From Schmidtea polychroa (taxonomy: Eukaryota): DNA of 64,000 nucleotides. A program made the position numbers and the translations under genes. The notes under the pieces are model-generated. The model was not told where the DNA came from. It worked only from the letters and a program-made list of their open reading frames with translations, and ran no database searches. The stretch spans positions 33,110,001 through 33,174,000 of the forward strand of contig CM097885.1 of the NCBI GenBank assembly GCA_044892525.1, read 5' to 3'. Below are positions 16,361 to 59,700 of the stretch, piece after piece (positions within the stretch are counted from its first letter, which is position 1; every line of letters begins with the position of its first letter).

Positions 16361-18517
16361 ATGAACAATTTGAACAATCAAATAAATTTGGACAGCTTGG
16401 GCTTTTATTACAATTTGTGTAATAAAAACTTTAAATGAAAAACGGCATTAACTTCTCACAAAAAAATCAAAAGACCATTTAATTAAAGGAAATCTTTTAA
16501 ATGATACCAACTCTAAACTTTGTAACAAGTGTAAAGAGCGATATTTACTTTCAGGATTTGATAAACATTATTCAAACTGTATTGGACTTAAAAAAATTAA
16601 AGAAGTATTTTCTTGTTTAATATGTAATAAAAAATTCACAAAAAATATTTTACAAAAGTATAATATTCCACCCGAAGAATACAAAACTTGTTTGGCAAAA
16701 GGAATATATCCCTATGATTATATTGACTCATTTAATAGATATCAAGAAATAGAATTACCATCACATGAAAATTTCTATTCAATATTAAATCTATCAAATA
16801 CAACTGAAGAAGAAGATGCAAGAGCTAGAAAAATGTGGTAACTATTTAATTGTCAAACATGAGGAGATTATACTGATATATACTTAAGTTTAGATGTATA
16901 TATTTTAGCAGACTGTTTCGAAAAGTTTGTAAAAGCTTTTCCATTAAAAGCTTATAATTATATAACCCTACCATCTTTAGCTTGGGATATATTATTATAT
17001 AGCATGAATGATAGTATAGAATTACTATCAGATGTTAACATGTTCAACACGATAAAAACTAATATTTGTGGAGGTATTAGTTCAGTAATGGGTGAACGAT
17101 ACATAAAAGCACTCAATTACAAATATCTTTACAAAACTTTATTCAAAGATACAGATGAACCATATGTTGAAATTAAAACACAAGAATTTAATATGGTAAT
17201 AGAATGTTTAAACAACCCAGCCCACATTTTATACATTGACGCGACCGCCCTATATGCAGGAATAATAACTCAACATCTTCCAATTGGAAATTTTGAATGG
17301 ATGGAAATACCTAAAACTAAACAGGGTAAAGAAGAATTAATGAATAAAATATTAAATACCCCCAAAGACTCAAACATAGGATATTTTATAGAATGTGATT
17401 TAAAATATCCAGAGCGCATAAAAGCTAACACAAAATATTTTCCATTTGCCCCAATAAAAAGAAAAATGGAAAAAGAAGAACTACTAGCTTGGCAACTTGA
17501 AAAAGAAAGGGGGTTTAGTAAGAAGCTAATATGTGACCAAACAGATAGGACATATTACCTTATACATTATAGAATGTTTAAATTCTATGTTAAACATGGA
17601 ATGAAAGTTAAAGATGTTTACAACATTATAAAATTTAAACAAGCCCCATTTATGAAGGGGTATATTGATCACAATATTAAAATGAGAAATGTATGCAAAA
17701 GAGCAAAAGATGAATTCGGGGACACAATGTATAAACTTTTAAATAATTCAGTCTTTGGTAAAACAATGGAAAACATTGATAAATATACAAAGATTGAATT
17801 ATTAACCAATAACCCCAAAGACTTCACAAGATATAACAGAATGTTGTCAAAACCAACATTTAAAAATGCAGAAATATTTTCAACTAGTTTAGCCGCAACA
17901 GAAATAGGAAATTACATAAAAACTTATAATAAACCAATGATTATATAGGATATAGTATTTTGGAGTTATCAAAACTTCAAATGTATGAAACCTATTATGA
18001 TACATTACAACCACACTTTCAAGACAGAATATCTTTACACTTTATGGACACAGATTCAATGCTTTTAAAGGTTTATTCTTCAGATATATACAAGGAAATA
18101 TCTGAAAATGAAACCTTGAATAAATTAATAAATAATAGTGGAGAATTATTTAGTTTCAAAGATGAGAAACCAAATAATTCAATATTTGAGGCAATATTTA
18201 TTACGGCTAAACAATATTCCCTTTTATTAGAGAGAGGAGAAGAAAATAGAAATAAGGGAATACAAAAATGGGTAGCTAAAAAAATTACACATCAAAACTT
18301 TACAGATTGTTTAAAACCACAATCTGAGATACAAATAGAAATAGTTCATCAGATTAAATCTGATAAACATAACATCTTTTTAGAAGAAGCACACAAAGTT
18401 TCACTTGACAATTATGACGATAAAAGGGTTATTTTGTCAGATGGAATTGGAAATGATATGATTCCATATATAAAAAACTTGTTTAGGATTATTATTTTCA
18501 TCAAGTCTAATATCTAG
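16361..18517 (+). pseudogene. Protein-primed family B DNA polymerase (pPolB), disrupted, exonuclease region deleted
   Basis: KGIYPYDY, LDVYILADCFEKF, GGISSV, YIDATALY, KLLNNSVFGKTMEN, LELSKLQMY, FMDTDS, YDDKR. Decayed Cys/His finger motifs at the N-terminus. In-frame stops at ~16850-16862 and 17946. Confidence 0.92.
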
Positions 18518-18897
18518 ACGCGTTCCGGGTCCAGTATAGTTGTTTTAAATAAGTGTCTTTCACCTGGATATTTTTCAGTAGTAAAAGGTTTTAATAATGA
18601 TGATGTTAATTTTGAAGATTGTAAATCACCACCCATGTGTGGAACCAGGTCGCCTCCTTGTTTCTCAAAAGCAAATCTGCTTGAAGGATTGAGCGCCAAC
18701 AAGAGAATATTACCTGAAGATGCTTTTAAATTATTTAATGAAATTTTATTATTAGAATCTGTTTCACCATTCGCCTTAGACTCATAAAGACGTGATCAAA
18801 TTATGTGTTTTTTAGTTTTAATATGACTTGCTTTATGATGTCTTGTAACTTCACAATGACAAGTTTTACATGTCCAATACTGTTTAGGTAGAGACAT
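18514..18897 (-). pseudogene. Small C2H2 zinc-finger ORF joined to a GG-motif core-protein fragment
   Basis: MSLPKQYWTCKTCHCEVTRHHKASHIKTKKH, then a stop, then ..KQGGDLVPHMGGDL.. (adenain-type motifs). Probably a deletion junction. Confidence 0.5.
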
Positions 18898-18924
18898 TTT
18901 AAAAAATTAATTTTTGTTTTCTTA

Positions 18925-20215
18925 TTAATCACCTCTAACATTCTCAATTATTGAAATCTTTCCACCATATAACTTCATTTCTATTTTCTTTTCTTCAAGA
19001 ATTTTTGTATATACTTTTGCTTTAAAATTAGAATCCTTTTTTATATGAAGAGTAACATCAACATTATTTATAGCCAATTTATCATCTTGATCTGAAACAT
19101 TTATGCAGAATATTGAATACAAATTTTTAAAATCTTTTAAAGATGTTTGTGATTCTGTTCCAAAATCTCGACATTTTTGAATATAATTTAGATAAGGGAA
19201 TATATTTTCATTGTTTTCTATATCAAACTCCATTCTATTTATTGGATAATAACTATTATTCAATTGAATTTGAATTGATTTTAAACAATCATAATCCAAT
19301 CTTTTGAATAAACAAGTCATTATTTTTTTGAAATGATGCATCTGTTTCTTTGAACCCAATTAAAATATATCTTGGAGGATATGTTAAATTTGCTACTTTT
19401 ATAGAGTATGTTGAGTCCTCTCTCATATCAAATTCACTACAGATTCTATTTAAATAATTTACATTTATTGACTTGTTGGAATTTAATCTTTCTAGTAATT
19501 TGATTTCAGCATGTGGATTTAAAATCCATTCAGGTATATGTAATTCGATTGTTGTTAATTTTAATTTAGCTTTTGTATCTTTATCTCCAAAGAACAACAC
19601 TTTATCATCTATTGCCCTATTACAAACTAATTCTATAAAAACATTATGAAGTACACGATTATAACTTTGAAGGAATCCAAATAAATGTTTCAATTCGAAA
19701 TAACCTTCAAATTTTTTAGACTTATAAAGTTCAAATCTTTTATAATAAGCATAATTTACATCTAAACCATCTTTATCTAAATCACCTTTGTTAATATCTG
19801 GGATCCAACCTGTTAATTCACCATATTCACTTTTATAATCATGAGTAGCTAAAATAAAACTTAACATTGTAGAATATACACCCGGATACAATATACTTTC
19901 AATTTCCGATGGTCCTAATTTTAATCTCATGTTGGAGAATAAATTTGGAAAGAAATTATTTTCTAGGGTAATATCTTTGTTTGCTTCAATCTCTAATTCA
20001 ATTTTATAATATAATCTTGCATTACAAATATCTATAGGGTTTGCTGTTTGAAAAGATTGAAAAACTATATCACCTGAACTATTTAAATTTGCAATAGAAC
20101 CTGCGGTTGGGGAAATTTTAAGTATGTCATTTTTCCTGATTTCATGAGTAAACTCTTTATTATAATCAAGATTTAGTTTATTTTTTTCTGGAATTTCAAG
20201 ATTTATGTTGTTCAT
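18925..20215 (-). pseudogene. Polinton major capsid protein (double jelly-roll), one frameshift near 19290
   Basis: LNSSGDIVF, LENNFFPNLFS, ELKHLFGFLQSYNRVL, IELHIP, PRYILIGF, then LNNSYYP..YSIFCINVSDQ in the second frame. Confidence 0.85.
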
Positions 20216-22849
20216 TTTTAAGATATAAATTTAGGTTTTTCACCTTTTTAATATTTTTTTATACATTTTAAAATTTTTAAAACCTTTAAAACCTTTAAAA
20301 CTTTTTTTATATTTTTTTATTTTTTATATTTAAGCCACAGTAGTGAGGAAACAGGCCACATGGGCGCTTTTAAACATATTTGAGAGATCACTGTGGACTT
20401 AGTGCTTAGATCAAATAAATATTTAAGGTTTTGGGGGTGGATGGTTTAAAGTGGCTTGGGTTTAAAAGTGGGTATTATAAAATCTTAGAGATTTAGAGGT
20501 GTTATATGAGGATTTAATGGTAGGGGTTTGGCGGTGTGGGAGTCTCCCTAGGGGGGGTGGGTCCATGTGGCCTGTTTCCTCACTACTGATTTTCAATACA
20601 AATTTCAATTACTGTTAAAAAAGCCAAGGATTATTCAGACTATAATGAGGGGTTCTCCTTGATCCTGGGATTTTTAATACAAAAAAATGGTTTACACTAA
20701 AAAAGTATGGTAAATTAAGGTCTCAGGATATTTTCAATACAAATTTCAGTCTACACCACCAAAAGCAAGGATTTTTATAATTAAAATAAGGTGGGTCTCG
20801 ATGGTCCTGGGATTTTCAATACAAAATCAGATTATCACTAAAAAAGCAAGGATTTTCCAAGTAAATTATTGGGGTCTCTTTGGTCTTGAGATATTCAATA
20901 CAAAAAGGGGGTCTTAACTAAAAAAGCGTGGTAATTTTTAAATTAAAGTAAATTGTGGGTCTACAAATTGAATTATAGTAAATTATGGGCTCAGATTTTT
21001 CAATTAAAGTATATTAAGGTTCTAAAAAATTAAATTAAAGTAAATTATGGTCTAAATTAGATAATTAAGGTTCAAATTTTAAAATTAAAGTAATCAATAG
21101 TAATAGGATATGTCACCACTGGCATATGACACCTCTGGCAAACACCCCTTAAAAAGGAAAAATTTTTCTAAGTCTAAAAGTACATTTTTTCCAAGGTAAT
21201 TTAAACCAAGACATTAGAACAAAGACCATGACTCATTCAAGGGCATTGGATGACTCACCAAGGTAATCGAAACAAAGACATGACCCACTCAAAGTCATTG
21301 GATGACTCATCAAGGACATTTCAAGGTCATTCCCAAGGTCACATGGCTCATCCAAGGTCATTTCAATGTCATAAGACTCATCAAAGGTCATTCTCAAGGT
21401 CATTCCAGGGTCACGTGACTCATTGCAATGATTAATCAAGGTCATATTATTATTTTTCAAAAATATTATTATTTTATTATTATTTTTCAAAAATATTATT
21501 ATTTTATTATTATTTTTCAAAAATATTATCAAGTATGCTAGCGGTACCCTACTATTTGGCATGCCAAAAGTTATTGTTCCCATCAATTTTATTTCATCGA
21601 TAGATAGATAATTTTGAAGCTTAGTGCAAGACCCTTTGAATGAGATATATAGATCATCATCACCATTATTACTGGTAAAGTTATTATTATTATAGTAGAT
21701 GGTAGTGTCCCACCCACACCATGTTCCATCCACACCACTAAAGAGAAATTTTTTTAAAACTCGGAATTTTATAACGAACATAAAATTATGTAGTCTATAT
21801 ATAGAAAATATGCATGGAAAATGAGCTCTAAAGTCTCAAACTTCAACATCAAATGCCATAATTTAACATCATTCATATATTATCAAACATAGAAAATCTT
21901 ATATTATAGAAATAAAATCATATTCTTCAACACATGGTGGGACAATGAACAAAAGCTTTAATAAAATACTTGGAAAAATATTTTAAAAAATATGAAAGTA
22001 CTTTAAAATAAAGGTCACACCACTTGACATAGAAATTTGAAAATTTTTAGGACACAACACTTTGAAAATTTTTATATAAAAATACTTGGAAAAAATCAAC
22101 AAATTACTAGAAATTAAAAAATCACATGGAATATTTACAAAATATTTCCAAATCACAAAATCCCCAAAATAAATTTCCCAACTCAAAATTTTCCCAAAAT
22201 TTAAAAAGTCCCAAAAATAAATTTTCCAAATTTTCCCAACTCAAAAAGTCCCAAAATTTCCCAAAGAAAATTTTTTAAAAAGGTACAAAAAATTAAAATC
22301 TAATTTTGTTCGCTGCAAAACGGAATTTCACGTGTACACATATGAACCTATTGTTAATAAGGTCTTAACTCGAAATCCTAAAAATAATAACCAACTCTCA
22401 ACTTAAGATCGCTTAGTTCTAATTTCTGTGTAATTTTGAATTCATGAAGCAGAAAATTTAAGATTAAATCCAGTCATCAAATAACAGAAAATTTTGAACC
22501 ACCATTAGTTTGTTTTCATTGCTTCAAATGTTTTGATTTATATATAATTTTCATATTTAAAAGATCAAAAATTCAAAAATATTGATGTTAAAAATAAATT
22601 TTTCTCTATAATCATCAAATAATTTTAAAATCAGGAAAATTACAAAAACATATCTGTTTTAACTTATCAACATTTCAAATTTGGATAATTTTGTATGATT
22701 GAATTGAATTGATAGGATGACATCTAAAGGTATAATTTATTTTGCACCAATGATCAAAATGGCCGGAGTATCAAACAGTATATTGCTCAATAAGATCCTA
22801 AATGATTGTAACATTAACAATCGAAAAAAATCATTTACATTATTTCTAT

Positions 22850-37783: not shown

Positions 37784-40752
37784 ATGAAAAAATATTATGG
37801 CCATAAATTCTATGGATTCAAATACTATTTATGTCCATCATGTCAGACTTCCCAACAAATAAAATATTCTGAATTTTACAACACCCATAGTAAACATCTT
37901 AATCAGTTTATTATAAAGAAACTTACCCTCTTTAAACAGATAAATAAAAATGTAAATAAAAATGTTAATAAAAATGTAAATAAAAACCTAAATAATGATG
38001 CGATTAGCGCAGAACATAAAAATGTTAATAAAAATGTTAATAAAAATGTAAATAAAAAGCTAAATAATGATGCGATTAGCGCAGAACATAAAAATGTAAA
38101 TAATAATGTAAATAAAAATGTGAATATCAAAAATGTAAATAATGATGCAATTAGCGCAGAACATAAAAATGTAAATAAAAATGTAAATGATAATAAAAAT
38201 ATAAATAATGATGCGATTAACGCAGAACATATAATTAAAAATGTAAATAATAATCTAAATAAAAATGTGAATATCAAAAATGTAAATAATACACAGCATG
38301 CTGTTATTCAAGATTTTTGTATACCATCTAAAGTTATTAAAGTTAATGGTGGTGATGAAATAAATAACAAAATAAATATCCAAATTAATAATCGAATGAA
38401 TAAGCAAATAGGTGGGTCAATACGCGGTTCAGTTGATATAGATGACGAACCAGAAATAGAATTAGATTTTAAGGGGGCTAGAAAAAATCTAAGGTTTGAC
38501 GTTGAGAAAAACGACTTAGTTCAAATATCGTTAACATCGAAAATTATAGAAAAGTTAATAGCTGAAATGAAAGGAATGGAGTCAGTTAAAATACAGTTCA
38601 CTGTTCTCATACAATTTGAGAAAGATGGCGAAATCCGAGATAATTTTTTCTCTAATAATGCAGAGGTTTTTCTGATAATTTTCTATTAGAGGGCATCACA
38701 TATTTAGGAAGTGGATGGCGGGTTGTTAGGATAAAAGAAATTGATTTTATAATAAATAAATATAAATATATAAATAGATTAGCTGGTCATAGTTATATCC
38801 CCACCCCAGCGGCTTTAAAGTCTAAAAAAGCAATTGTAAATATACAGAACACAGATGATGATATGTGTTTTATCTATAGTATTCTAGCCCTCTTAAAGCG
38901 TAATGTTATACACAGAAATAAGCACCGTGTTACTGCTTATGAGAGTTATTTAGATGAGATCAATTTCGACCCTATTAGTGATTGCCCGATGAAAACAGTG
39001 AACTGAACTTAGCTATTAACGTTTTAACTTATAGAACGACACCATCTAAGTCTATTGAACATCAAGATATAAATTATATTCCCCATCACCCACATCTAGA
39101 TATTAATCACCGCTCTAATGTTATAGGTGGTGAACCCATATATTTATTATTATTAGAAGACGGTGGTAATTTTCATTACACCGCAGTTTTTGATCTTCAA
39201 AAACTTATGAATTGCCATCGTAGTAATTCATGTAATATAGAAATTTGCGTAAAATGGTGTCCACATTACCTTAATGGCTTTAGATATAATAAGATATTTA
39301 ATATCCTTGTAGATCTATGTAGTAAGAACCAAATAGGTACTACATTGTAGATCCTACCTAAAGACAAAAATTTAATTTTCAAAGATTTTTCAAAAAGAAT
39401 AACCCCGCTATTCGTGATATATGCAGATTTTGAGGCAATCTTGCCTGAAGACATCACCCACCACCAAAACCATTTGCAAATAACAGCAGGCATGTTATTA
39501 ATTAATAATTATAATAACACTAGATTTTATTATGAGTTTGTTGGTGATGACTGTGTGTTGTCTTTCTTGCGTAAGGTGGAGGAAATTGCGGTCAAAATTG
39601 TCCTGCCATATTACGAAATTAATGGGAAAAAGCCCATGCAAACCTTGTCTTTCACTGAAGAACGTGTCTTTCGAGAATCCAGAACCTGTTATCTGTGTAA
39701 AAAATTCATTAAAGATAGAGTTAGGGATCATTGTCACTTTACAGGCAAGTATCTTGGTGCTGCCTGTAGGAACTATAATGTTTCGCGACAAATTCAGAAA
39801 CAGCTACCTGTTGTTTTTCACAATTTGAAGGGGTATGATTTACATCATATTTTAAAGTACGGTTTGAATAATTTTCCTTCTTAGGAATTAAATATTATTC
39901 CGACCACTACTGAGAAATTCATCTCTCTCATCGCGTACATTAACAAATTGCCTGTTCGTTTTATTGACAGCATGCAGTTTGTTAATTCATCTTTAGCAAA
40001 AGCAGTTAAGACTCTTTCCGATCTGCCTTTAACTTCTTCTGTTTTTGATGGCGCAATTGTTCGAGCCAAAGGTATCTTTCCATATGAGTTCGCTACATCG
40101 CTTGAGGTTCTGGAATCGACTCTTGAACTACCTCCGATCTGGGATTCTGTGTCTAATGATGAGTATGCATTAGCCCAAGTTATTTGGACTCAGCAAAATT
40201 GCAACAACATGTTAGATTACAAGTTAACTTACCTGAAGTTAGACGTGTTTCTCCTCGCAGACTATTTCCAACAATTCCGTGAAAAGGCCATTGCTTACAA
40301 TGGTCTGGAGCCTCTTAATTTCTATGGCATTCCCGATATGTCATGGGCCTCAGCGCTTATGACATTAACGGAACCCATTGAACTTTTGAAGGACATGGAA
40401 ATGTTTAATTTCTATGAAGGAGGGATACGGGGTGGGTTATCATTTGTTAACAAACATTATGTTGTAAGTTCTGAAGACACAGAACTCTTGTATATTGACA
40501 TAAATAACTTATATGGTTGGGCCTTAAGCCAAAAGCTTCCGTATGCCGACTTTGAATAGGTGTATGATGATCTTGATTCTGTCTTGAATGAATGTATGAA
40601 TGAGGATATTGAAAATCTTCCATATGGGTATACTATGGAAGTGGATATCGATATCCCTCAGTGTGTGCATAATTTTTTGAATGATTTTCCGATTGCTCCG
40701 GAAAAGATGTGCCCGCCAGATTCGAAAGTTGAGAAGCTGATGCTCACGCATT
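37784..40752 (+). pseudogene. Second protein-primed DNA polymerase B (Polinton), frameshifted and 3'-truncated
   Basis: GSGW, YIPTP..KKAIVNIQNTDDDMCF, IYADFEAIL, CYLC..VRDHCHFTGKYLGAAC (endonuclease VII-like), VVFHNLKGYD, RFIDSMQF, KGIFPYEF, RGGLSFV, YIDINNLYG. N-terminal NKNV and NNDAISAEH repeats. Confidence 0.92.
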
Positions 40753-42878
40753 GACCGAAAATTATACCTTCATTATTTACTTTTATTTCTTGGTCCCTAT
40801 TTTCTATGGCCAATATTTTAGTTTTAGTTTTATCTACCTTGGCGTTTTCATGAACTGTTTGGCACTGACTACATGAAGTACAGTCTTTTCTTGATAGGGC
40901 ATCTGCGTTAGCATGCAATTCTTCTTTTCTGTATTCTAATTTGATATCTAGCCCACTTAAATAGTTAATCCATGTTTGGAATTGTGCTGTAATTGGCTTT
41001 TTTGTATTTATCAAAAAGGTTCTTAAAGTAAATCTTTTTCCATATAGATAGTGTTTGAAATGCTGAGTAAAATGATAGATTGCAAGCAATTCCTTTCGCG
41101 TAATGCAGTAACCGATTTCGTGCTTATTCATTGTCTTTGATCCATATGCAATAACTTGTTCTTGTCCATTACTACTCAACTGCGAAAGCACTCCCCCAAT
41201 CGTATCGAAACTAGCATCTGTATCTAAAATAAAGGTTTTTCGTAAATCTGGAAATCCTAGTACTGGGGTAAACGTTAACTCTTTCTTTAGCGTGTTGAAA
41301 TTTGTTTCACATTCTTCAGTCCATATAAGTTTATCTTTGTTAGACCCACATAACCTTTCTAATGGTCTTGCATACTTGGCGTAATCTTTAACAAATTTGC
41401 AAATTTGCAAAATAGCAAAATTTGCAATTTGTTAAGCCTAGAAAGCTTCTTAAACGTTTAATACATTTTGGTTTTTCATATTCTTGCATTGCTTTTATCT
41501 TTTCATAATCTGTCTTTATACCATTTTTATTTATAATGTGTCCTAAAGGTTTTATTTCTAGTTTGTTAAAACAACATTTTTCTAAGCTTATTTTCAAACC
41601 AGCTTCTTGAATCTTTCGAAAAACTCTTTCTAGTCTTTTTTAATGTTCGATTTCATTGTCTGCAAATATAAGGATATCGTCTAAATAGACAATTGCTTCT
41701 CTCCAATTAAGATCACCCAAAACTTGAGTCATTAATTTTTGAAAAGTTGCTGGGGCAGCTGCAATTCCAAAAGGCATTCGGTTAAAACAATATTGACCAT
41801 CTTTTGTTGAAAATGCAGTCTTTATTTTTGATTGCTCTTCTAATTCCACTTGATAATAGGCATTACCAAGATCGATAGTGCAAAATATCTGTGATCCATT
41901 TAGGATATCCATCATCTCTTCAATATTTGGTATTGGAAATCGAGGTCTCTCCGTAATTGCATTTAGTGCCCGAAAATCCAAACATATTCTAATATCTGAT
42001 TTATTCTTTTTTAACACACATACCAATGGGCTATTCCACACCGAGTCACATTTTTTTATAATTCCTGCTTCTTCCATGTCTTTTAGCATGTCTTGTATTT
42101 TGTGAGCAATATGAATCGGCTGACGTTTAGGATTAATTGTCACTGGGCTACATCTAGTAACTATCTTATGTTTAATTAACTGTGTTTTTCCTACATCCCA
42201 TTTATTTTTCATGAATATATCCGAAAATTCTTTAAGTAATTTATTAATCGTTGGGTCGATAATTCCTTTCAAATTGTTTTCTTCTAAATTCATTAATTGA
42301 TTTTTTAATTTTACTTTAGTTACTGCCTGTAATTTAATATCAAAACAATTCATCATTTCTACGCCTGCAATTACGCTCGGGTTAATCTTATTTGCCACAA
42401 AGAATCTTATTACCAATTCTAATCCCGAAATTCTCACTTTTAGTAATATTGTTCCTATGATTTTAAGTGTGCTCTCGTTTGCACATGTAATCATAATATT
42501 GGATTCCCCTATTTTATCACGCATCTTTAATTTACTAACAACATCTTCGCTAATCACGTTTATTCTAGCCCCGGTATCCAAAAGACAATCAACTTTTATT
42601 TTATTTTCCAGCCAAATACCTACACTAGGTCTGCCATTCATTCTTTCGTAAACGAATTTAGGTGCAAAAGGTCTTTCTTTATTTTCATTAACTTTATTAT
42701 TAATTATATCGATACTCATAATCTTATCAATTTTGTTATTAATTTCATAAAAACTATATTCAAAATAATTTTCAAAGTCAAAACATTCACAATCATTCAT
42801 AATTACATCATTAATTTTTAAATCATCTTTAAATTCATTCATTACGGAAATCTTGAAATCACAAGCATTCAAATTCAA
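40753..42878 (-). pseudogene. Gypsy pol (aspartic protease, RT, RNase H)
   Basis: ORFs 41640-42878, 41388-41597 and the homologous part of 40658-41410 carry the motifs listed for the element. Confidence 0.92.
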
Positions 42879-42904
42879 ACATTCTGTGTCAACAAGATAC
42901 TTAC

Positions 42905-43958
42905 TTAAACCAAATTTATGGCTCCTAGCAACTCCCTTGAAACTGGAGCCTCCCCTTTTAGCTGTTCGAAATCTTTTTGCATGTCATCCTGTTGAATCAG
43001 CTCTCTTTCCTCGTATTCGTAGTCGTATATCGCATTGCATTGTCTTCGATGTGGTCCTCTGTCTGAAGATTGGTTTCTGCTTTGATATTGTCCTCTGGAT
43101 CCAAATTGTTTTTGATTTCTATCATAATTTCTTCCGTTGTAATATGCTTCTGTTTTAACTGAATTTCTTCTGATGTCCCAACATTGATACTTGAAATGAC
43201 CATTTATGGAACATTGAGAGCATTTTACGTTTGGGCATTCTGCTTGAATATGTCCTTGCTCTCCACACGCCCAACATCTCTGCAGTTTAAATCGCCTGGT
43301 CCTGTTCTTCCAGTCACTTTTATTTGGCATATTGAAGTTCACGGCCTCATTGGTTCTAGAGTTAGAAAATATTGGTGTCTTATTCTGTTGGTACAACTGA
43401 GTTTTTCTCGGACTTTTGACTGTCTCCGCATATGATTTATTTTCATGTAGAGATGCTAAGGATTGTTCACTTGAAAGCTCTTTTTGAATTTCTTCCATTT
43501 TTGATATCACTTCCTTGGCCTTATCTACTGATTTAACTTCTATTAATTTCAATTCTTTTTTTGTTTCCATATCTTCCATTGCATTCTACATTAAAAATAA
43601 CATTAATGCCGGTTTTGTTAATTTGTGTCGAAGAACATTGTCGACGAGCTTTTCCACTTTATTGAAAAATTCGGTGCACGAGTCATTTCCTTTTCGATAT
43701 CTTAAAGCTGCGTCTAGATCCATGGCTAGATTTTTACTTGGCTCGAACGCTTTTCTTAATCTTTCTTCATAGCCTCAATAATCGCTCTGTACTTCTCCAT
43801 ATTTCTGGATCAACTCTACCGACAGAAAGGCCTTGGTAACAATTTCTTGAGTTTCTTGCGGTTGTTGAGTAAATTCGAAAAATCTCTTCAATTCCAAAAT
43901 AAAAATTTCTAAATAACCATTTGGCAGCAATTGATTAGGTGGCTTTAATATAGTTCTG
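42905..43958 (-). pseudogene. Gypsy gag
   Basis: CWACGEQGHIQAEC and CSQCSINGHFKYQC; frameshifts upstream. Confidence 0.85.
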
Positions 43959-50313: not shown

Positions 50314-50808
50314 TTATGATCGACTTCCTATTTTTCCACCTAATAATGATATTGCTAAAGGTATCAATGAACCGATAAATCCCCCTTGTTGTTTATATAT
50401 AATTTTTCTCATTTGCTTACGATTTTTATTATTTACTAATGATACCAAAGGTTTCCTATGTTTACTCAATAATTGCTTTTTGGATTTACTGATTTTAATC
50501 TTGTCTTTGACTACTTTAAGTATAATATCCATTAAATCATCGACAACATAATTTGGGAATGATTGCAAAATACTGATTCTTTTCATACTCGGCGCCTTTA
50601 ACAATGTATTAAAAAACGGGAAACTCCGATGATTTTTAACAACTATTACTTTCTGACTGGTTTTACGTTTAGGTTTAGGTTTAAAATATTTCGAAATAAG
50701 ATTCATTGCAGGAAAATGTTCAGTAATAAGTTCTTTAGATGGAGTATAACTAGTTGTTGGTGGAACTTTTGGTTGTTTTTTATTTGTTACCCTTGTTTCT
50801 GAAAACAT
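50314..50808 (-). CDS. Basic core/pVII-pX-like protein, copy 3
   Basis: Paralog of 1114-1647, ending in QQGGFIGSLIPLAISLLGG. Confidence 0.75.
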   Translation of the reverse strand: MFSETRVTNKKQPKVPPTTSYTPSKELITEHFPAMNLISKYFKPKPKRKTSQKVIVVKNHRSFPFFNTLLKAPSMKRISILQSFPNYVVDDLMDIILKVVKDKIKISKSKKQLLSKHRKPLVSLVNNKNRKQMRKIIYKQQGGFIGSLIPLAISLLGGKIGSRS

Positions 50809-51249
50809 GTTTTATATGTATTCAACTATGTTTTGAACTTTGTTTATAAACCGTGGCACCTTTTGGTTTGAAAATATCTGTTTTTACCCGTAAATCATTA
50901 GGAGACTGTTGTGTGAAATCAAGAAATATATACCCATGAGGTATTTTCGTAGCATCTTGAAATGCACTGATAAGAAAATACGATTATTAGGGTATGCTTG
51001 TCGTCCAAGAAAGTCAATGACAGTTGCATCTCTAGAATTCTTGAAAATAACTAAATATTGTACATTTAAATTACGTGTTCGATGTGCACCACCTTGATGA
51101 AATAGATTTTGTGTTATGAAAATAACTGTTACACGAATATGTCTGCTAATTTCTTTTCTGCTAATTTGCCGGCGGTATGACGTAATATGCCTTTGTTACG
51201 TCATCGATGGCGTCATATGTCTTTGTCCCCGGGTCCACATGTTACCCTA

Positions 51250-51922: not shown

Positions 51923-52330
51923 ATGAAAAACTTTCAAGTTAATAACTTCAAAGTCAGCGTGAACATTAATATCCAGACAAACCTGTAAATACATTCAAGA
52001 AAATATTTAGGAAGCAAATATTTAAAAGATTTATAAACAACACTACCAGGGAGTCAACCTTTTTCGTTAAATTGGCAAACTTGTCATAAGCGGATCACAT
52101 CAGCTATCACATCAGTATCAGAATAAGCAAATCCAAAAAAGTATCATAAGTAAAAATTTATTGCATTCCTATACAGATCATTCATGACTCTCAAAAACCA
52201 AAGAAATATCATCAACATACTTTTTGTACACAATTGATTTAGTTAAATTGTACAATGGAAAATATTTTTACAAACTAGACATAAAAATATAGACTATTGT
52301 TGAAAGCAATGGGGAACAAATAGCAACACG
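51923..52330 (+). pseudogene. Decayed second TBP-like gene (insertion site of the tandem array; continues after 59483)
   Basis: MKNFQVNNFKVSVNINIQTNL..., VNLFR*IGKLVISGS and ISSTYFLYTIDLVKLY resemble TBP repeat motifs. Frameshifts and stops present. Confidence 0.45.
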
Positions 52331-52369
52331 AAGCAAATATTTAAAAGATTTTATTGAAGATTTATTGAA

Positions 52370-52870
52370 TTGGCGAAACATGAAGGAAGAATAATGGAGA
52401 TATTGCACCTAAGCAGAATGAACAGTGACAGGGGCTTGGCCGAGTATGGCGATGGTGGGAGGAGAATCCATCATGATGTATCAAGAATGATGCTGGATGC
52501 GGTGCAGAGGTTCTTTCCAGTGAGGCTCAACGTCTTGGAGGACCTAGAGCGGTTTGAAGAGCTGCTGGGAAACCTCATCCTGAATTTCAAGGAACAGAAG
52601 AGGGAAGGCGAGTTGAACAACGGAATGTTGTATCACCAACTGCTGAAGAAGCTGCCAGAGACCATGCTGATTCAGTGGTCACGCCATTGTGATTTGGGGA
52701 GAGAAGGAAAGGTACAAACGCTAGCCGAATGGATCAAAACGGAAGCCGATAGGCATCGAAAAGCCTTGAATATATTGTTTGGGGAGAGAACTCCAGGGAG
52801 TAGGAAGGATGTGGGGACATTGAAAAAGTTCACAAACATCATGGAGAGAAAACCAATTGCAAGAAATCAA
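52370..52870 (+). pseudogene. BEL/Pao gag fragment (repeated at +1788, +3576, +5364)
   Basis: GC-richer segment; LERFEELLGNLI..GELNNGMLYHQLLKKLPETMLIQWSR..VQTLAEWIKTEA is typical of BEL/Pao gag. Confidence 0.7.
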
Positions 52871-53239
52871 GCTCCAAGATGTTCGCATTTGGCTCAGAGT
52901 TATTTTGCGGTAACAAAAATGTTAAATGGCGGTAATCGACAAAATTTCCTTGAGAATAACGAAATAGATTCCATAGATGTAATAAATCCTTCCGATTCAA
53001 AAAATGATTCAGATATCGAAAATAATGAAGATGAAAATGACGGAGAAATGATTATTCATGATGTAGATAATTCTGAAGAAATGGTTTTTTAGAAATTATT
53101 GATTCGATGGATTGTTATAATTAAATTAGGTTTTAAATGGAATGTTGTTTTACCGGATTAATTGGATTTTTTTGGTAGATTTGTTTAAAATTGGTTTTAA
53201 ATTGAAATCTGTGGAAATTATGATGAATTTCATTCTCAG

Positions 53240-53365
53240 AATGTTCGGCTCTATTGGTTATTGCAATGCATGTGATAAAGTTATTCCAGCATTTGAGTTG
53301 GTAATGCGAGCGGGAAGTTTTGTGTATCATTTGGAATGTTTTGGTTGTCAAGAATGTAATCATAG
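53240..53365 (+). pseudogene. LMO: LIM-only (LMO1/3-like) second LIM domain exon fragment (x4)
   Basis: TTCTCAG^[43 protein letters not shown] versus LMO RLFG..G.CAACSKLIPAFEMVMRA.DNVYHLDCFACQLCNQR. Confidence 0.85.
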
Positions 53366-53461
53366 AGGAGCTCATGGATTTATTGTTGTGGTTGATGTTA
53401 CCGATCAAGATTCGTTTAACAATGTTAAAAATTGGCTTAATGAAATCGATAGATATGCAAA
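53364..53461 (+). pseudogene. RAB1: Rab1 GTPase fragment (x4)
   Basis: [32 protein letters not shown] versus Rab1 [32 protein letters not shown]. Confidence 0.88.
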
Positions 53462-53784
53462 AGGAAAAGTTCCCGATAAAATGAGTGAGACGAGTTCAGC
53501 TACGAGATTGTTTAATATTACTTAATGTACTGGAGGTGTTATGATTGGTATGATCCCTGATTGTCGATCTCAAGTACGTCGCGCACGAATGGAAGCAGCT
53601 CGATTTAATTCTGAAATTGCTCATAAAATGACTTGCGATATAATATGTTTGTCTATGTTTGTCTATGTCTATGTTTATATTGATCAATTCAATTCCCAAT
53701 CGGCTGAGAGGCGACCATTAGGATGTTAAATGATGGCATTATCTTCTGATCTTGAACTGGACAAAATGTTATTCAAAACTGATC
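53462..53784 (+). pseudogene. PSMA6: 20S proteasome alpha-6 (alpha1) subunit fragment (x4)
   Basis: [61 protein letters not shown] versus [58 protein letters not shown]..VYKCD. Confidence 0.85.
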
Positions 53785-56700
53785 GACGTGGCCCTGTAGA
53801 GGCGAACAATAAAATTGTTATTCGTTCCTTTGGACTTATTCATGGACTTTTTCGTTAAATTGGCAAATTTGTCATAAGCGGATCACATCAGCTATCACAT
53901 CAGTATCAGAATAAGCAAATCCAAAAAAGTATCATAAGTAAAAATTTATTGCATTCCTATACAGATCATTCATGACTCTCAAAAACCAAAGAAATATCAT
54001 CAACATACTTTTTGTACACAATTGATTTAGTTAAATTGTACAATGGAAAATATTTTTACAAACTAGACATAAAAATATAGACTATTGTTGAAAGCAATGG
54101 GGAACAAATAGCAACACGAAGCAAATATTTAAAAGATTTTATTGAAGATTTATTGAATTGGCGAAACATGAAGGAAGAATAATGGAGATATTGCACCTAA
54201 GCAGAATGAACAGTGACAGGGGCTTGGCCGAGTATGGCGATGGTGGGAGGAGAATCCATCATGATGTATCAAGAATGATGCTGGATGCGGTGCAGAGGTT
54301 CTTTCCAGTGAGGCTCAACGTCTTGGAGGACCTAGAGCGGTTTGAAGAGCTGCTGGGAAACCTCATCCTGAATTTCAAGGAACAGAAGAGGGAAGGCGAG
54401 TTGAACAACGGAATGTTGTATCACCAACTGCTGAAGAAGCTGCCAGAGACCATGCTGATTCAGTGGTCACGCCATTGTGATTTGGGGAGAGAAGGAAAGG
54501 TACAAACGCTAGCCGAATGGATCAAAACGGAAGCCGATAGGCATCGAAAAGCCTTGAATATATTGTTTGGGGAGAGAACTCCAGGGAGTAGGAAGGATGT
54601 GGGGACATTGAAAAAGTTCACAAACATCATGGAGAGAAAACCAATTGCAAGAAATCAAGCTCCAAGATGTTCGCATTTGGCTCAGAGTTATTTTGCGGTA
54701 ACAAAAATGTTAAATGGCGGTAATCGACAAAATTTCCTTGAGAATAACGAAATAGATTCCATAGATGTAATAAATCCTTCCGATTCAAAAAATGATTCAG
54801 ATATCGAAAATAATGAAGATGAAAATGACGGAGAAATGATTATTCATGATGTAGATAATTCTGAAGAAATGGTTTTTTAGAAATTATTGATTCGATGGAT
54901 TGTTATAATTAAATTAGGTTTTAAATGGAATGTTGTTTTACCGGATTAATTGGATTTTTTTGGTAGATTTGTTTAAAATTGGTTTTAAATTGAAATCTGT
55001 GGAAATTATGATGAATTTCATTCTCAGAATGTTCGGCTCTATTGGTTATTGCAATGCATGTGATAAAGTTATTCCAGCATTTGAGTTGGTAATGCGAGCG
55101 GGAAGTTTTGTGTATCATTTGGAATGTTTTGGTTGTCAAGAATGTAATCATAGAGGAGCTCATGGATTTATTGTTGTGGTTGATGTTACCGATCAAGATT
55201 CGTTTAACAATGTTAAAAATTGGCTTAATGAAATCGATAGATATGCAAAAGGAAAAGTTCCCGATAAAATGAGTGAGACGAGTTCAGCTACGAGATTGTT
55301 TAATATTACTTAATGTACTGGAGGTGTTATGATTGGTATGATCCCTGATTGTCGATCTCAAGTACGTCGCGCACGAATGGAAGCAGCTCGATTTAATTCT
55401 GAAATTGCTCATAAAATGACTTGCGATATAATATGTTTGTCTATGTTTGTCTATGTCTATGTTTATATTGATCAATTCAATTCCCAATCGGCTGAGAGGC
55501 GACCATTAGGATGTTAAATGATGGCATTATCTTCTGATCTTGAACTGGACAAAATGTTATTCAAAACTGATCGACGTGGCCCTGTAGAGGCGAACAATAA
55601 AATTGTTATTCGTTCCTTTGGACTTATTCATGGACTTTTTCGTTAAATTGGCAAATTTGTCATAAGCGGATCACATCAGCTATCACATCAGTATCAGAAT
55701 AAGCAAATCCAAAAAAGTATCATAAGTAAAAATTTATTGCATTCCTATACAGATCATTCATGACTCTCAAAAACCAAAGAAATATCATCAACATACTTTT
55801 TGTACACAATTGATTTAGTTAAATTGTACAATGGAAAATATTTTTACAAACTAGACATAAAAATATAGACTATTGTTGAAAGCAATGGGGAACAAATAGC
55901 AACACGAAGCAAATATTTAAAAGATTTTATTGAAGATTTATTGAATTGGCGAAACATGAAGGAAGAATAATGGAGATATTGCACCTAAGCAGAATGAACA
56001 GTGACAGGGGCTTGGCCGAGTATGGCGATGGTGGGAGGAGAATCCATCATGATGTATCAAGAATGATGCTGGATGCGGTGCAGAGGTTCTTTCCAGTGAG
56101 GCTCAACGTCTTGGAGGACCTAGAGCGGTTTGAAGAGCTGCTGGGAAACCTCATCCTGAATTTCAAGGAACAGAAGAGGGAAGGCGAGTTGAACAACGGA
56201 ATGTTGTATCACCAACTGCTGAAGAAGCTGCCAGAGACCATGCTGATTCAGTGGTCACGCCATTGTGATTTGGGGAGAGAAGGAAAGGTACAAACGCTAG
56301 CCGAATGGATCAAAACGGAAGCCGATAGGCATCGAAAAGCCTTGAATATATTGTTTGGGGAGAGAACTCCAGGGAGTAGGAAGGATGTGGGGACATTGAA
56401 AAAGTTCACAAACATCATGGAGAGAAAACCAATTGCAAGAAATCAAGCTCCAAGATGTTCGCATTTGGCTCAGAGTTATTTTGCGGTAACAAAAATGTTA
56501 AATGGCGGTAATCGACAAAATTTCCTTGAGAATAACGAAATAGATTCCATAGATGTAATAAATCCTTCCGATTCAAAAAATGATTCAGATATCGAAAATA
56601 ATGAAGATGAAAATGACGGAGAAATGATTATTCATGATGTAGATAATTCTGAAGAAATGGTTTTTTAGAAATTATTGATTCGATGGATTGTTATAATTAA

Positions 56701-59700
56701 ATTAGGTTTTAAATGGAATGTTGTTTTACCGGATTAATTGGATTTTTTTGGTAGATTTGTTTAAAATTGGTTTTAAATTGAAATCTGTGGAAATTATGAT
56801 GAATTTCATTCTCAGAATGTTCGGCTCTATTGGTTATTGCAATGCATGTGATAAAGTTATTCCAGCATTTGAGTTGGTAATGCGAGCGGGAAGTTTTGTG
56901 TATCATTTGGAATGTTTTGGTTGTCAAGAATGTAATCATAGAGGAGCTCATGGATTTATTGTTGTGGTTGATGTTACCGATCAAGATTCGTTTAACAATG
57001 TTAAAAATTGGCTTAATGAAATCGATAGATATGCAAAAGGAAAAGTTCCCGATAAAATGAGTGAGACGAGTTCAGCTACGAGATTGTTTAATATTACTTA
57101 ATGTACTGGAGGTGTTATGATTGGTATGATCCCTGATTGTCGATCTCAAGTACGTCGCGCACGAATGGAAGCAGCTCGATTTAATTCTGAAATTGCTCAT
57201 AAAATGACTTGCGATATAATATGTTTGTCTATGTTTGTCTATGTCTATGTTTATATTGATCAATTCAATTCCCAATCGGCTGAGAGGCGACCATTAGGAT
57301 GTTAAATGATGGCATTATCTTCTGATCTTGAACTGGACAAAATGTTATTCAAAACTGATCGACGTGGCCCTGTAGAGGCGAACAATAAAATTGTTATTCG
57401 TTCCTTTGGACTTATTCATGGACTTTTTCGTTAAATTGGCAAATTTGTCATAAGCGGATCACATCAGCTATCACATCAGTATCAGAATAAGCAAATCCAA
57501 AAAAGTATCATAAGTAAAAATTTATTGCATTCCTATACAGATCATTCATGACTCTCAAAAACCAAAGAAATATCATCAACATACTTTTTGTACACAATTG
57601 ATTTAGTTAAATTGTACAATGGAAAATATTTTTACAAACTAGACATAAAAATATAGACTATTGTTGAAAGCAATGGGGAACAAATAGCAACACGAAGCAA
57701 ATATTTAAAAGATTTTATTGAAGATTTATTGAATTGGCGAAACATGAAGGAAGAATAATGGAGATATTGCACCTAAGCAGAATGAACAGTGACAGGGGCT
57801 TGGCCGAGTATGGCGATGGTGGGAGGAGAATCCATCATGATGTATCAAGAATGATGCTGGATGCGGTGCAGAGGTTCTTTCCAGTGAGGCTCAACGTCTT
57901 GGAGGACCTAGAGCGGTTTGAAGAGCTGCTGGGAAACCTCATCCTGAATTTCAAGGAACAGAAGAGGGAAGGCGAGTTGAACAACGGAATGTTGTATCAC
58001 CAACTGCTGAAGAAGCTGCCAGAGACCATGCTGATTCAGTGGTCACGCCATTGTGATTTGGGGAGAGAAGGAAAGGTACAAACGCTAGCCGAATGGATCA
58101 AAACGGAAGCCGATAGGCATCGAAAAGCCTTGAATATATTGTTTGGGGAGAGAACTCCAGGGAGTAGGAAGGATGTGGGGACATTGAAAAAGTTCACAAA
58201 CATCATGGAGAGAAAACCAATTGCAAGAAATCAAGCTCCAAGATGTTCGCATTTGGCTCAGAGTTATTTTGCGGTAACAAAAATGTTAAATGGCGGTAAT
58301 CGACAAAATTTCCTTGAGAATAACGAAATAGATTCCATAGATGTAATAAATCCTTCCGATTCAAAAAATGATTCAGATATCGAAAATAATGAAGATGAAA
58401 ATGACGGAGAAATGATTATTCATGATGTAGATAATTCTGAAGAAATGGTTTTTTAGAAATTATTGATTCGATGGATTGTTATAATTAAATTAGGTTTTAA
58501 ATGGAATGTTGTTTTACCGGATTAATTGGATTTTTTTGGTAGATTTGTTTAAAATTGGTTTTAAATTGAAATCTGTGGAAATTATGATGAATTTCATTCT
58601 CAGAATGTTCGGCTCTATTGGTTATTGCAATGCATGTGATAAAGTTATTCCAGCATTTGAGTTGGTAATGCGAGCGGGAAGTTTTGTGTATCATTTGGAA
58701 TGTTTTGGTTGTCAAGAATGTAATCATAGAGGAGCTCATGGATTTATTGTTGTGGTTGATGTTACCGATCAAGATTCGTTTAACAATGTTAAAAATTGGC
58801 TTAATGAAATCGATAGATATGCAAAAGGAAAAGTTCCCGATAAAATGAGTGAGACGAGTTCAGCTACGAGATTGTTTAATATTACTTAATGTACTGGAGG
58901 TGTTATGATTGGTATGATCCCTGATTGTCGATCTCAAGTACGTCGCGCACGAATGGAAGCAGCTCGATTTAATTCTGAAATTGCTCATAAAATGACTTGC
59001 GATATAATATGTTTGTCTATGTTTGTCTATGTCTATGTTTATATTGATCAATTCAATTCCCAATCGGCTGAGAGGCGACCATTAGGATGTTAAATGATGG
59101 CATTATCTTCTGATCTTGAACTGGACAAAATGTTATTCAAAACTGATCGACGTGGCCCTGTAGAGGCGAACAATAAAATTGTTATTCGTTCCTTTGGACT
59201 TATTCATGGACTTTTTCGTTAAATTGGCAAATTTGTCATAAGCGGATCACATCAGCTATCACATCAGTATCAGAATAAGCAAATCCAAAAAAGTATCATA
59301 AGTAAAAATTTATTGCATTCCTATACAGATCATTCATGACTCTCAAAAACCAAAGAAATATCATCAACATACTTTTTGTACACAATTGATTTAGTTAAAT
59401 TGTACAATGGAAAATATGTTTACAAACTAGACATAAAAATATAGACTATTGTTGAAAGCAATGGGGAACAAATAGCAACACGATCTACCTGTTTATACCA
59501 CTCATTATTAAAAATATTATTCAAATATTATCCAAAATGCAATTTCCTCAACTTTGCAGCAATAAAAATAGTTCTATTTATGCTTATTTAGATTTTTGAT
59601 TATTTTTCATATTATAAGTGGTTTTTATATTTTGCAATATCAAATTAAACAAAAGTTATTGAAAAAATTTTAAATTTCAATAAAAATAATTTTATAAAAC

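Follow-up and report, generated by a model that had tools for sequence, protein, structure and literature searches.

The sequence analysed here, referred to as the window, is a 64,000-nucleotide stretch of Schmidtea polychroa (assembly GCA_044892525.1, contig CM097885.1, positions 33,110,001 to 33,174,000, forward strand), and positions 52059 to 59483 within it hold a tandem array whose repeating unit carries pieces of several host genes. We interpret this array as a rearranged BEL/Pao retrotransposon fragment present in four tandem copies. The fragment likely entered a DNA break without the aid of integrase and was amplified afterwards. The mosaic of host pieces is interpreted as the long terminal repeat (LTR) of the source family, likely assembled through template switches of reverse transcriptase (RT) onto spliced messenger RNAs (mRNAs). 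The probability of this reading is put at about 0.8.

Composition of the tandem array

The array has a period of 1788 bp and comprises four units (52059-59210), after which the 273-bp flank occurs once more, for the fifth time, and ends at 59483. The first unit, its local template and the further copies are resolved as follows.

52011-52032, + strand: local template of a 22-nt re-copy, identical to 52330-52351
52059-52331, + strand: 273-bp target sequence, duplicated, member of an old degenerate repeat family; further copies start at 53847, 55635, 57423 and 59211
52330-52362, + strand: templated filler, made up of the local re-copy (22 nt) and 11 nt of filler that repeat the start of the next piece
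52363-52486, + strand: 3' internal piece of the element, 124 bp, displaced to the front of gag; 98% identical to loci L022, L025 and L073
52487-52931, + strand: BEL/Pao gag fragment; 96% identical to many dispersed elements whose open reading frame (ORF) has DUF1759
52934-53087, + strand: acidic host-gene fragment, carried within elements; donor frame at G000:C2:102.55 Mb
53079-53842, + strand: LTR body and 3' end, head absent, ending TTATTCA; 96% identical to solo LTR L005
53234-53365, + strand: LMO (LIM-only) mRNA piece; 98% identical to the donor at G000:C3:76.49 Mb; PF00412
53366-53461, + strand: Rab1 mRNA piece; donor L176, G000:C2:3.0 Mb; PF00071
53458-53799, + strand: proteasome alpha-1-type mRNA piece, which we take to be PSMA6-like; donor L187, G000:C1:117.275 Mb
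53808-53813, + strand: AATAAA by the LTR 3' end, a putative signal by sequence
53847-55634, + strand: array unit copy 2
55635-57422, + strand: array unit copy 3
57423-59210, + strand: array unit copy 4
59211-59483, + strand: final 273-bp target copy, beyond which the old flank picks up

Units 2 to 4 are mutually 100% identical, and the array contains just two mismatches, at 52080 (C versus T) and 59418 (G versus T), with the 52080 C and 59418 G variants confined to the outer flank copies. The preliminary description, made from the sequence alone, had reported four near-identical 1788-bp copies with single-base differences at about these two positions, together with a local re-copy linking about 52011 and about 52330; both observations hold, the re-copy being exact over 22 nt. 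Its identification of LMO, Rab1 and PSMA6 pieces in sense orientation agrees with the donor genes and with Pfam, in which LIM and Ras are both found above their cut-offs in one 108-aa frame of the unit and the proteasome piece falls slightly below its cut-off (E 1.4e-4). The Gag piece of the unit returned no match of its own in the Pfam search, yet it is 96% identical to element Gags that have DUF1759. The claim that has to be withdrawn is that LTRs are absent, as unit positions 1021-1784 represent the family LTR minus its first ~160 bp, ending AATAAA...TTATTCA.

A dispersed BEL/Pao family as the source

A genome search with one unit yielded 108 matches among the 40 of 2112 candidates that were scored, in which unit positions 1021-1784 and 429-873 recur blockwise on all four large contigs. 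The dispersed elements are ~5 kb in length and bounded by direct repeats of 0.75-1.1 kb, which also occur as lone repeats. The LTRs of the family start with TGTTTC and end with CA; directly after the 5' LTR lies the iMet primer site TGGTAGCAGAGCGTGGTT, which is the complement of the 3' terminus of a tRNA-Met(CAT) gene, and a purine run (polypurine tract, PPT) precedes the 3' LTR copies. Genome-wide pattern counts gave 643 LTR heads and 128 PPT-LTR junctions, against 0 for both reversed controls. Both LTRs and the primer site were present in 17 of the 40 PPT-anchored loci that were fetched. Within these 17 elements, the two LTRs agree at 88-100% (median identity, 99.2%). A 5-bp target-site duplication (TSD) flanks 12 of the 17, although several lie within microsatellites, where such a match is less telling. 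A further 15 solo LTRs were called by TSD.

The internal frames of the elements encode two ubiquitin domains and DUF1759 (PF03564 in L085, L098 and L095), and the broken frames of L071 contain the Pao peptidase domain PF05380 above its cut-off, with RT and integrase pieces (PF00078, PF17921 and PF00665) in order. By its LTR ends, primer site, PPT, TSD and domain order, the family is assigned to BEL/Pao. The order of gag, acidic piece and LTR is the same in the dispersed elements as in the array unit, and the normal location of the 124-bp piece that opens the unit is immediately upstream of the PPT. The earlier proposal that unrelated gene fragments had been stitched together is accordingly upheld as to the host origin of the pieces and not as to their independent arrival at this site, since gag, acidic piece and LTR were already together in the dispersed elements.

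Several side observations concern the family as a whole. A single ubiquitin-like domain precedes Gag in L071 and L095 (Pfam-checked for L095), which suggests that the first ubiquitin may be a later capture. Runs of (AAT)n or (AT)n lie no more than 20 nt away in 39 of 78 left flanks of non-PPT LTRs (L005-L174), and the same rule applied to window 20-mers gave 130 of 3199; the family is likely to prefer microsatellites for insertion. Family elements recur at ~58-kb spacing at G000:C1:15.58-16.06 Mb, which suggests a large tandem segmental repeat, and tRNA-Met(CAT) genes form a tandem array with a 454-bp period at G000:C1:79,326,093-79,357,637 and beyond (L241).

Host donors and capture from spliced transcripts

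The LMO, Rab1 and PSMA6 pieces lie inside the LTR, the acidic piece alone being internal to the element, and all match their donor genes in sense. The LMO piece consists of the final 6 nt of one exon and the entire next exon, stopping exactly at the exon end; the two donor exons (G000:C3:76.49 Mb) are 14.9 kb apart and are contiguous in 3 LTRs. The Rab1 piece crosses the site of a removed 42-bp intron, with both of its ends in mid-exon, and the introns of the proteasome donor are likewise missing from the LTR copies. Exon joins of Rab1 and PSMA6 are found in tens of LTR copies with gaps of 0-3 bp. Four of five tested donor introns had no match in 129 LTR-bearing stretches, and the fifth gave low-complexity matches only (80-88%). 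A search with PF10584 alone was insufficient to single out the PSMA6 donor. Donor loci and junction microhomologies, which the preliminary description had proposed to seek, were both found, and a fifth donor, absent from its list, was added: the acidic host exon at G000:C2:102.55 Mb, which belongs to a frame that stays open for at least 1847 aa. This frame (L229, G000:C2:102,553,001-102,558,542) is very acidic, has internal repeats and gave no Pfam match.

Because introns are missing from the LTR copies and the LMO-Rab1 junction is common to 22 other LTR copies, the host pieces are concluded, on sequence grounds, to have been captured from spliced mRNA, before the insertion in the window took place. 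An origin by Helitron or Pack-TIR capture was rejected, as introns are absent and the ends are those of LTRs.

In the proposed mechanism, RT would switch template onto spliced host mRNAs and so build the mosaic within the LTR. Template switching had been suggested in the preliminary description, and it remains the likely means by which the host pieces were joined; the joining is placed earlier, in the LTRs of the family, and not at this site. The window Rab1-PSMA6 junction is in mid-exon on both sides and has an imperfect microhomology of ~10 nt, while the LMO-Rab1 junction shows 2-3 nt, lengths that may reflect microsimilarity at the points of switching. The host pieces might instead have entered through splicing, a host exon donor being joined to a cryptic LTR acceptor, with the LTR in an intron or in trans, and the chimeric RNA being recombined into the element thereafter, much as in SVA exon trapping. 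The LMO piece stopping exactly at the exon end, with Rab1 directly after CAG in 22 copies, would fit such a route, as would a second junction, found in 6 copies, in which the end of Rab1 exon 4 is joined to mid-PSMA6. This second junction, however, also has microhomology on the spliced mRNA, the window Rab1-PSMA6 junction, with its two mid-exon sides and its microhomology, speaks against splicing, and the mappable inter-gene junctions number only three. Entry by splicing is considered unlikely.

An open leader ahead of ubiquitin and Gag

Among the 124 LTR heads returned by the search, the end could be called in 76 and was reliable (primer site or TSD) in 36. The Gag frame is stop-free over at least 100 codons in 26 of the 36 reliable-end LTRs, the other two frames reaching this length in 1 and 0, respectively. 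In 13 of the 17 two-LTR elements the frame stays open from the 5' LTR across the primer site and for 500 nt or more beyond it, two of these frames being 1222 and 1178 aa long. LTR, primer site and ubiquitin-ubiquitin-Gag can be read as one continuous frame. The content of the leader varies among LTRs: in 40 frames scanned, other LTRs contained host pieces matching DSPc, TCP-1 chaperonin, cofilin and WD40, with weak matches to U-box and RING and several pieces that received no assignment, and L095 has a DEAD-box piece ahead of its ubiquitin domain.

Variants in the host pieces were scored against the donor exons in 129 copies. Those present in a single copy comprised 230 nonsynonymous changes, 66 synonymous changes and 14 stops versus 17.6 expected, a neutral pattern, whereas those shared by at least two copies comprised 109 nonsynonymous and 37 synonymous changes with 1 stop versus 8.3 expected (p=0.002). 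Indels follow suit, with both of the two shared indels being 3 bp in length and 9 of 12 single-copy indels shifting the frame. Purifying selection on the captured host proteins was tested with the shared variants and not found (omega-like ratio, 0.93). For the element parts, in which shared variants were counted against the commonest codon per column, the omega-like ratio was 0.72 for the first ubiquitin (Ub1; not significant), 0.23 for the second (Ub2; p=0.0016), 0.26 for the N-terminal part of Gag, 0.07 for DUF1759 and 1.4 for the acidic piece. A Gly-Gly terminus was retained by Ub2 in 24 of 26 copies and by Ub1 in 14 of 20. Ub2 and Gag are under purifying selection. Since stops are purged, amino acids drift and the ratios of Ub2 and Gag are low, the leader must stay open with its content free, while spacer and Gag are conserved.

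Ubiquitin precursors are processed by cleavage after Gly-Gly. Translation is proposed to begin inside the LTR, such that only captures that keep the Gag frame would spread, and a host deubiquitinase would likely cut at the conserved Gly-Gly before Gag. The release of Gag would make the content of the leader irrelevant, and the ubiquitin-like spacer would in this manner allow host pieces to be tolerated.

The open frame could alternatively serve as camouflage, well-translated element RNA evading the surveillance that produces PIWI-interacting RNAs (piRNAs) whether the leader is cut or not. Consistent with this is the purging of stops and not of amino acid changes, and poorly translated transcripts are described in PMC10954484 as feeding into piRNAs in planarian stem cells. 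Camouflage does not, however, account for the open frame being that of Gag or for purifying selection on Ub2 and its Gly-Gly. It is given a low likelihood, but it could operate together with the LTR leader and releasable Gag proposed above.

Insertion and amplification at the locus

The window copy departs from the dispersed elements in having neither a TG start nor a 5-bp TSD; it is instead associated with a 273-bp duplication within an old repeat, whose family extends beyond the right edge at 75-79% identity. Its junctions show microhomologies of 2-6 nt, including 6 nt at the join of acidic piece and LTR, as well as the local re-copy, and the order of its pieces is shuffled. The missing TG start and 5-bp TSD, together with the microhomologies and local re-copy, are in keeping with an origin through break repair, in which element complementary DNA (cDNA) would have been joined by microhomology with duplication of the 273-bp target. 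The array may then have grown between the 273-bp repeats, by unequal exchange or rolling-circle copying. These site-specific junctions fit the templated-insertion repair and later tandem amplification put forward in the preliminary description, which does not hold as an origin of the mosaic because the junctions of the latter are present in dispersed LTRs. Integration of a circle through crossover within the 273-bp target, an idea derived from the outer-only 52080 C and 59418 G, is unsupported, as the G is absent from the contigs of both sequencing runs described below.

In run X1, one contig bridges the junction of LTR end and flank with zero differences and a second spans the junction of flank and insert, its short side of 30 letters being one below the bar of the tool. 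The two junction contigs have a depth of ~600 versus ~900 for the flank, although by the tool's own warning depth is no measure of copy number here. A 539-letter contig from run X5, which belongs to another study, continues beyond the flank end into different sequence, the LTR-end junction being uncovered in this run. The 59418 G was absent from X1 and X5 contigs alike. These data suggest that the insertion is real, multi-copy and polymorphic; the window copy was amplified recently and is probably polymorphic.

The count of four units could nevertheless be an assembly artefact and the true allele possess a single unit, since copies 2-4 are 100% identical and the 59418 G is missing from both runs. 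The 2:3 ratio of junction to flank depth in X1 exceeds the 1:2 expected from one homozygous unit and would fit a heterozygote of four copies and an empty site, or two copies, with the same reservation as to depth. A single-unit allele is judged to be quite improbable.

It is most improbable that the mosaic was built on site, an origin that is largely refuted, and that it forms a nascent chimeric gene or a multi-target small-RNA locus. In favour of this view are the repair-like character of the site-specific junctions and the single 244-aa frame made up by the 3'-internal, gag and acidic pieces, but the mosaic and its junctions recur in dispersed LTRs with target duplications, which led us to reject local assembly, and the mosaic frame is interrupted by two stops (53523-53525 and 53727-53729) in all units, with the LTR head lost. 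From these two stops and the lost head, the array appears to be a dead by-product, and the nascent chimeric gene envisaged earlier is unlikely. The preliminary description had itself noted that its account would fall if the cassette proved to be part of a gene-capturing element, and it is in a dispersed element of this kind that the pieces are found.

Several points weigh against the proposed reading. An intact gag-pol frame was not found among the 40 PPT-anchored loci. The LTR copies share common ancestry and are not independent, some of those in the frame count had been selected through protein searches, and the LMO loci as well as 40 of the 129 copies in the stop and variant test were chosen by protein searches favouring intact frames, a bias for which the neutral stop rate of singleton variants provides an internal control. 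The LMO-Rab1 junction, exactly at the exon end after CAG, fits splicing as well as switching. Finally, run X1 may derive from the same material as the assembly, and X5 has no cover over 53880-53909, rendering the empty-site reading tentative.

Comparison with known systems

In the LTR-mediated retroposition of metazoans (PMC5131818), parts of spliced mRNAs are copied with microsimilarity at the points of switching, chimeras of several genes arise, one of them made by the Pao element BATUMI, and onward transposition is non-autonomous. Intronless partial host mRNAs and multi-gene chimeras are shared with the present family. The retrocopies described there take the place of some of the internal ORF sequence that lies between the LTRs, whereas the main capture site here is within the LTR, and unlike them the capture is duplicated at both ends, is left behind in solo LTRs and keeps to the frame of Gag, with a ubiquitin-like spacer following it. 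Maize Bs1 (PMC13317346, PMC5131818) similarly unites pieces of three unrelated host genes in one LTR-element frame; Bs1, however, is a lone chimera with the element on either side, while many alternative subfamily mosaics occur here in the LTR, and the captured pieces are without amino acid constraint.

BEL/Pao elements, including the Flow families of Schmidtea (PMC3118150), share the DUF1759 Gag, Pao peptidase A17, RT, integrase, TG...CA LTRs and 5-bp TSD; the same paper cites a Repbase report that deals with a BEL family of Schmidtea. The word "ubiquitin" is absent from its main text, and most of the examined copies of the present family are without pol and have host-coding LTRs. The planarian Burro elements (PMC6431247) are LTR elements that, as here, include host-like domains in one polyprotein, among them a Ubi2/SUMO-like motif, but they are gypsy-like and ~30 kb long with an N-terminal Gag and the extras behind it, in contrast to the ~5-kb BEL/Pao elements. 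For the window copy, the likely model is the insertion of Ty cDNA into breaks in yeast (PMC11372161), in which Ty cDNA fragments, sometimes several joined, are patched into double-strand breaks; unlike the yeast case, the insert here has a 273-bp target duplication and fourfold tandem growth, and stems from an animal assembly.

In the literature searched, which excluded subscription papers, Repbase reports and supplements, no description was found of LTR-borne host mosaics fused via ubiquitin to Gag. A protein of LIM-Ras-proteasome make-up was not present among the best 120 of 2070 matches, protein searches elsewhere returned distant Gag relatives only, and in a metagenome scan 0 of 69 pattern matches were confirmed. 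Two outside proteins are noted as leads only: P0001, an EAP30-proteasome chimera with 82% identity to the proteasome piece of the LTRs, and P0272, a WD40-Gag-HSP70 model whose Gag part shows 48% identity.

Neighbourhood of the array

The remainder of the window contains two intronless protein-kinase ORFs (PF00069; 59731-60597 and 29293-30117, - strand), whose DNA agrees at ~94% in a comparison of 300 nt; one of the two lies 250 bp from the array. Polinton-like pieces at 1114-2829, 16452-20230, 39351-40559 and 50314-50811 include DNA_pol_B_2, a double jelly roll and a weak A32-like ATPase with an adjoining TBP-like ORF, and at 40658-43585 (- strand) lies a distinct pol fragment of LTR type that matches protease and RT.

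Significance for the family

The array is a dead derivative, and its four copies add little beyond the hundreds of LTRs bearing the same pieces; the interest resides in the mechanism of the family. An immediate consequence concerns annotation, as more than 150 "Rab1" matches and many proteasome matches are mostly LTR copies and not paralogues. More speculatively, and with the odds against it, a BEL/Pao lineage may have made of its LTR a cassette for exon shuffling that propagates itself, in which a domesticated ubiquitin-like spacer frees in-frame host pieces riding ahead of Gag, hundreds of solo and tandem LTRs seed translatable chimeric ORFs (Rab, proteasome, chaperonin, phosphatase, LIM), and the resulting RNAs or peptides act on the donor genes. 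The family illustrates how a retrotransposon can capture host sequence at a high rate and at little cost, with selection on the frame only and a likely cleavable ubiquitin-like linker shielding Gag. By such a route, which is open to test, exons could be shuffled en masse in an animal.

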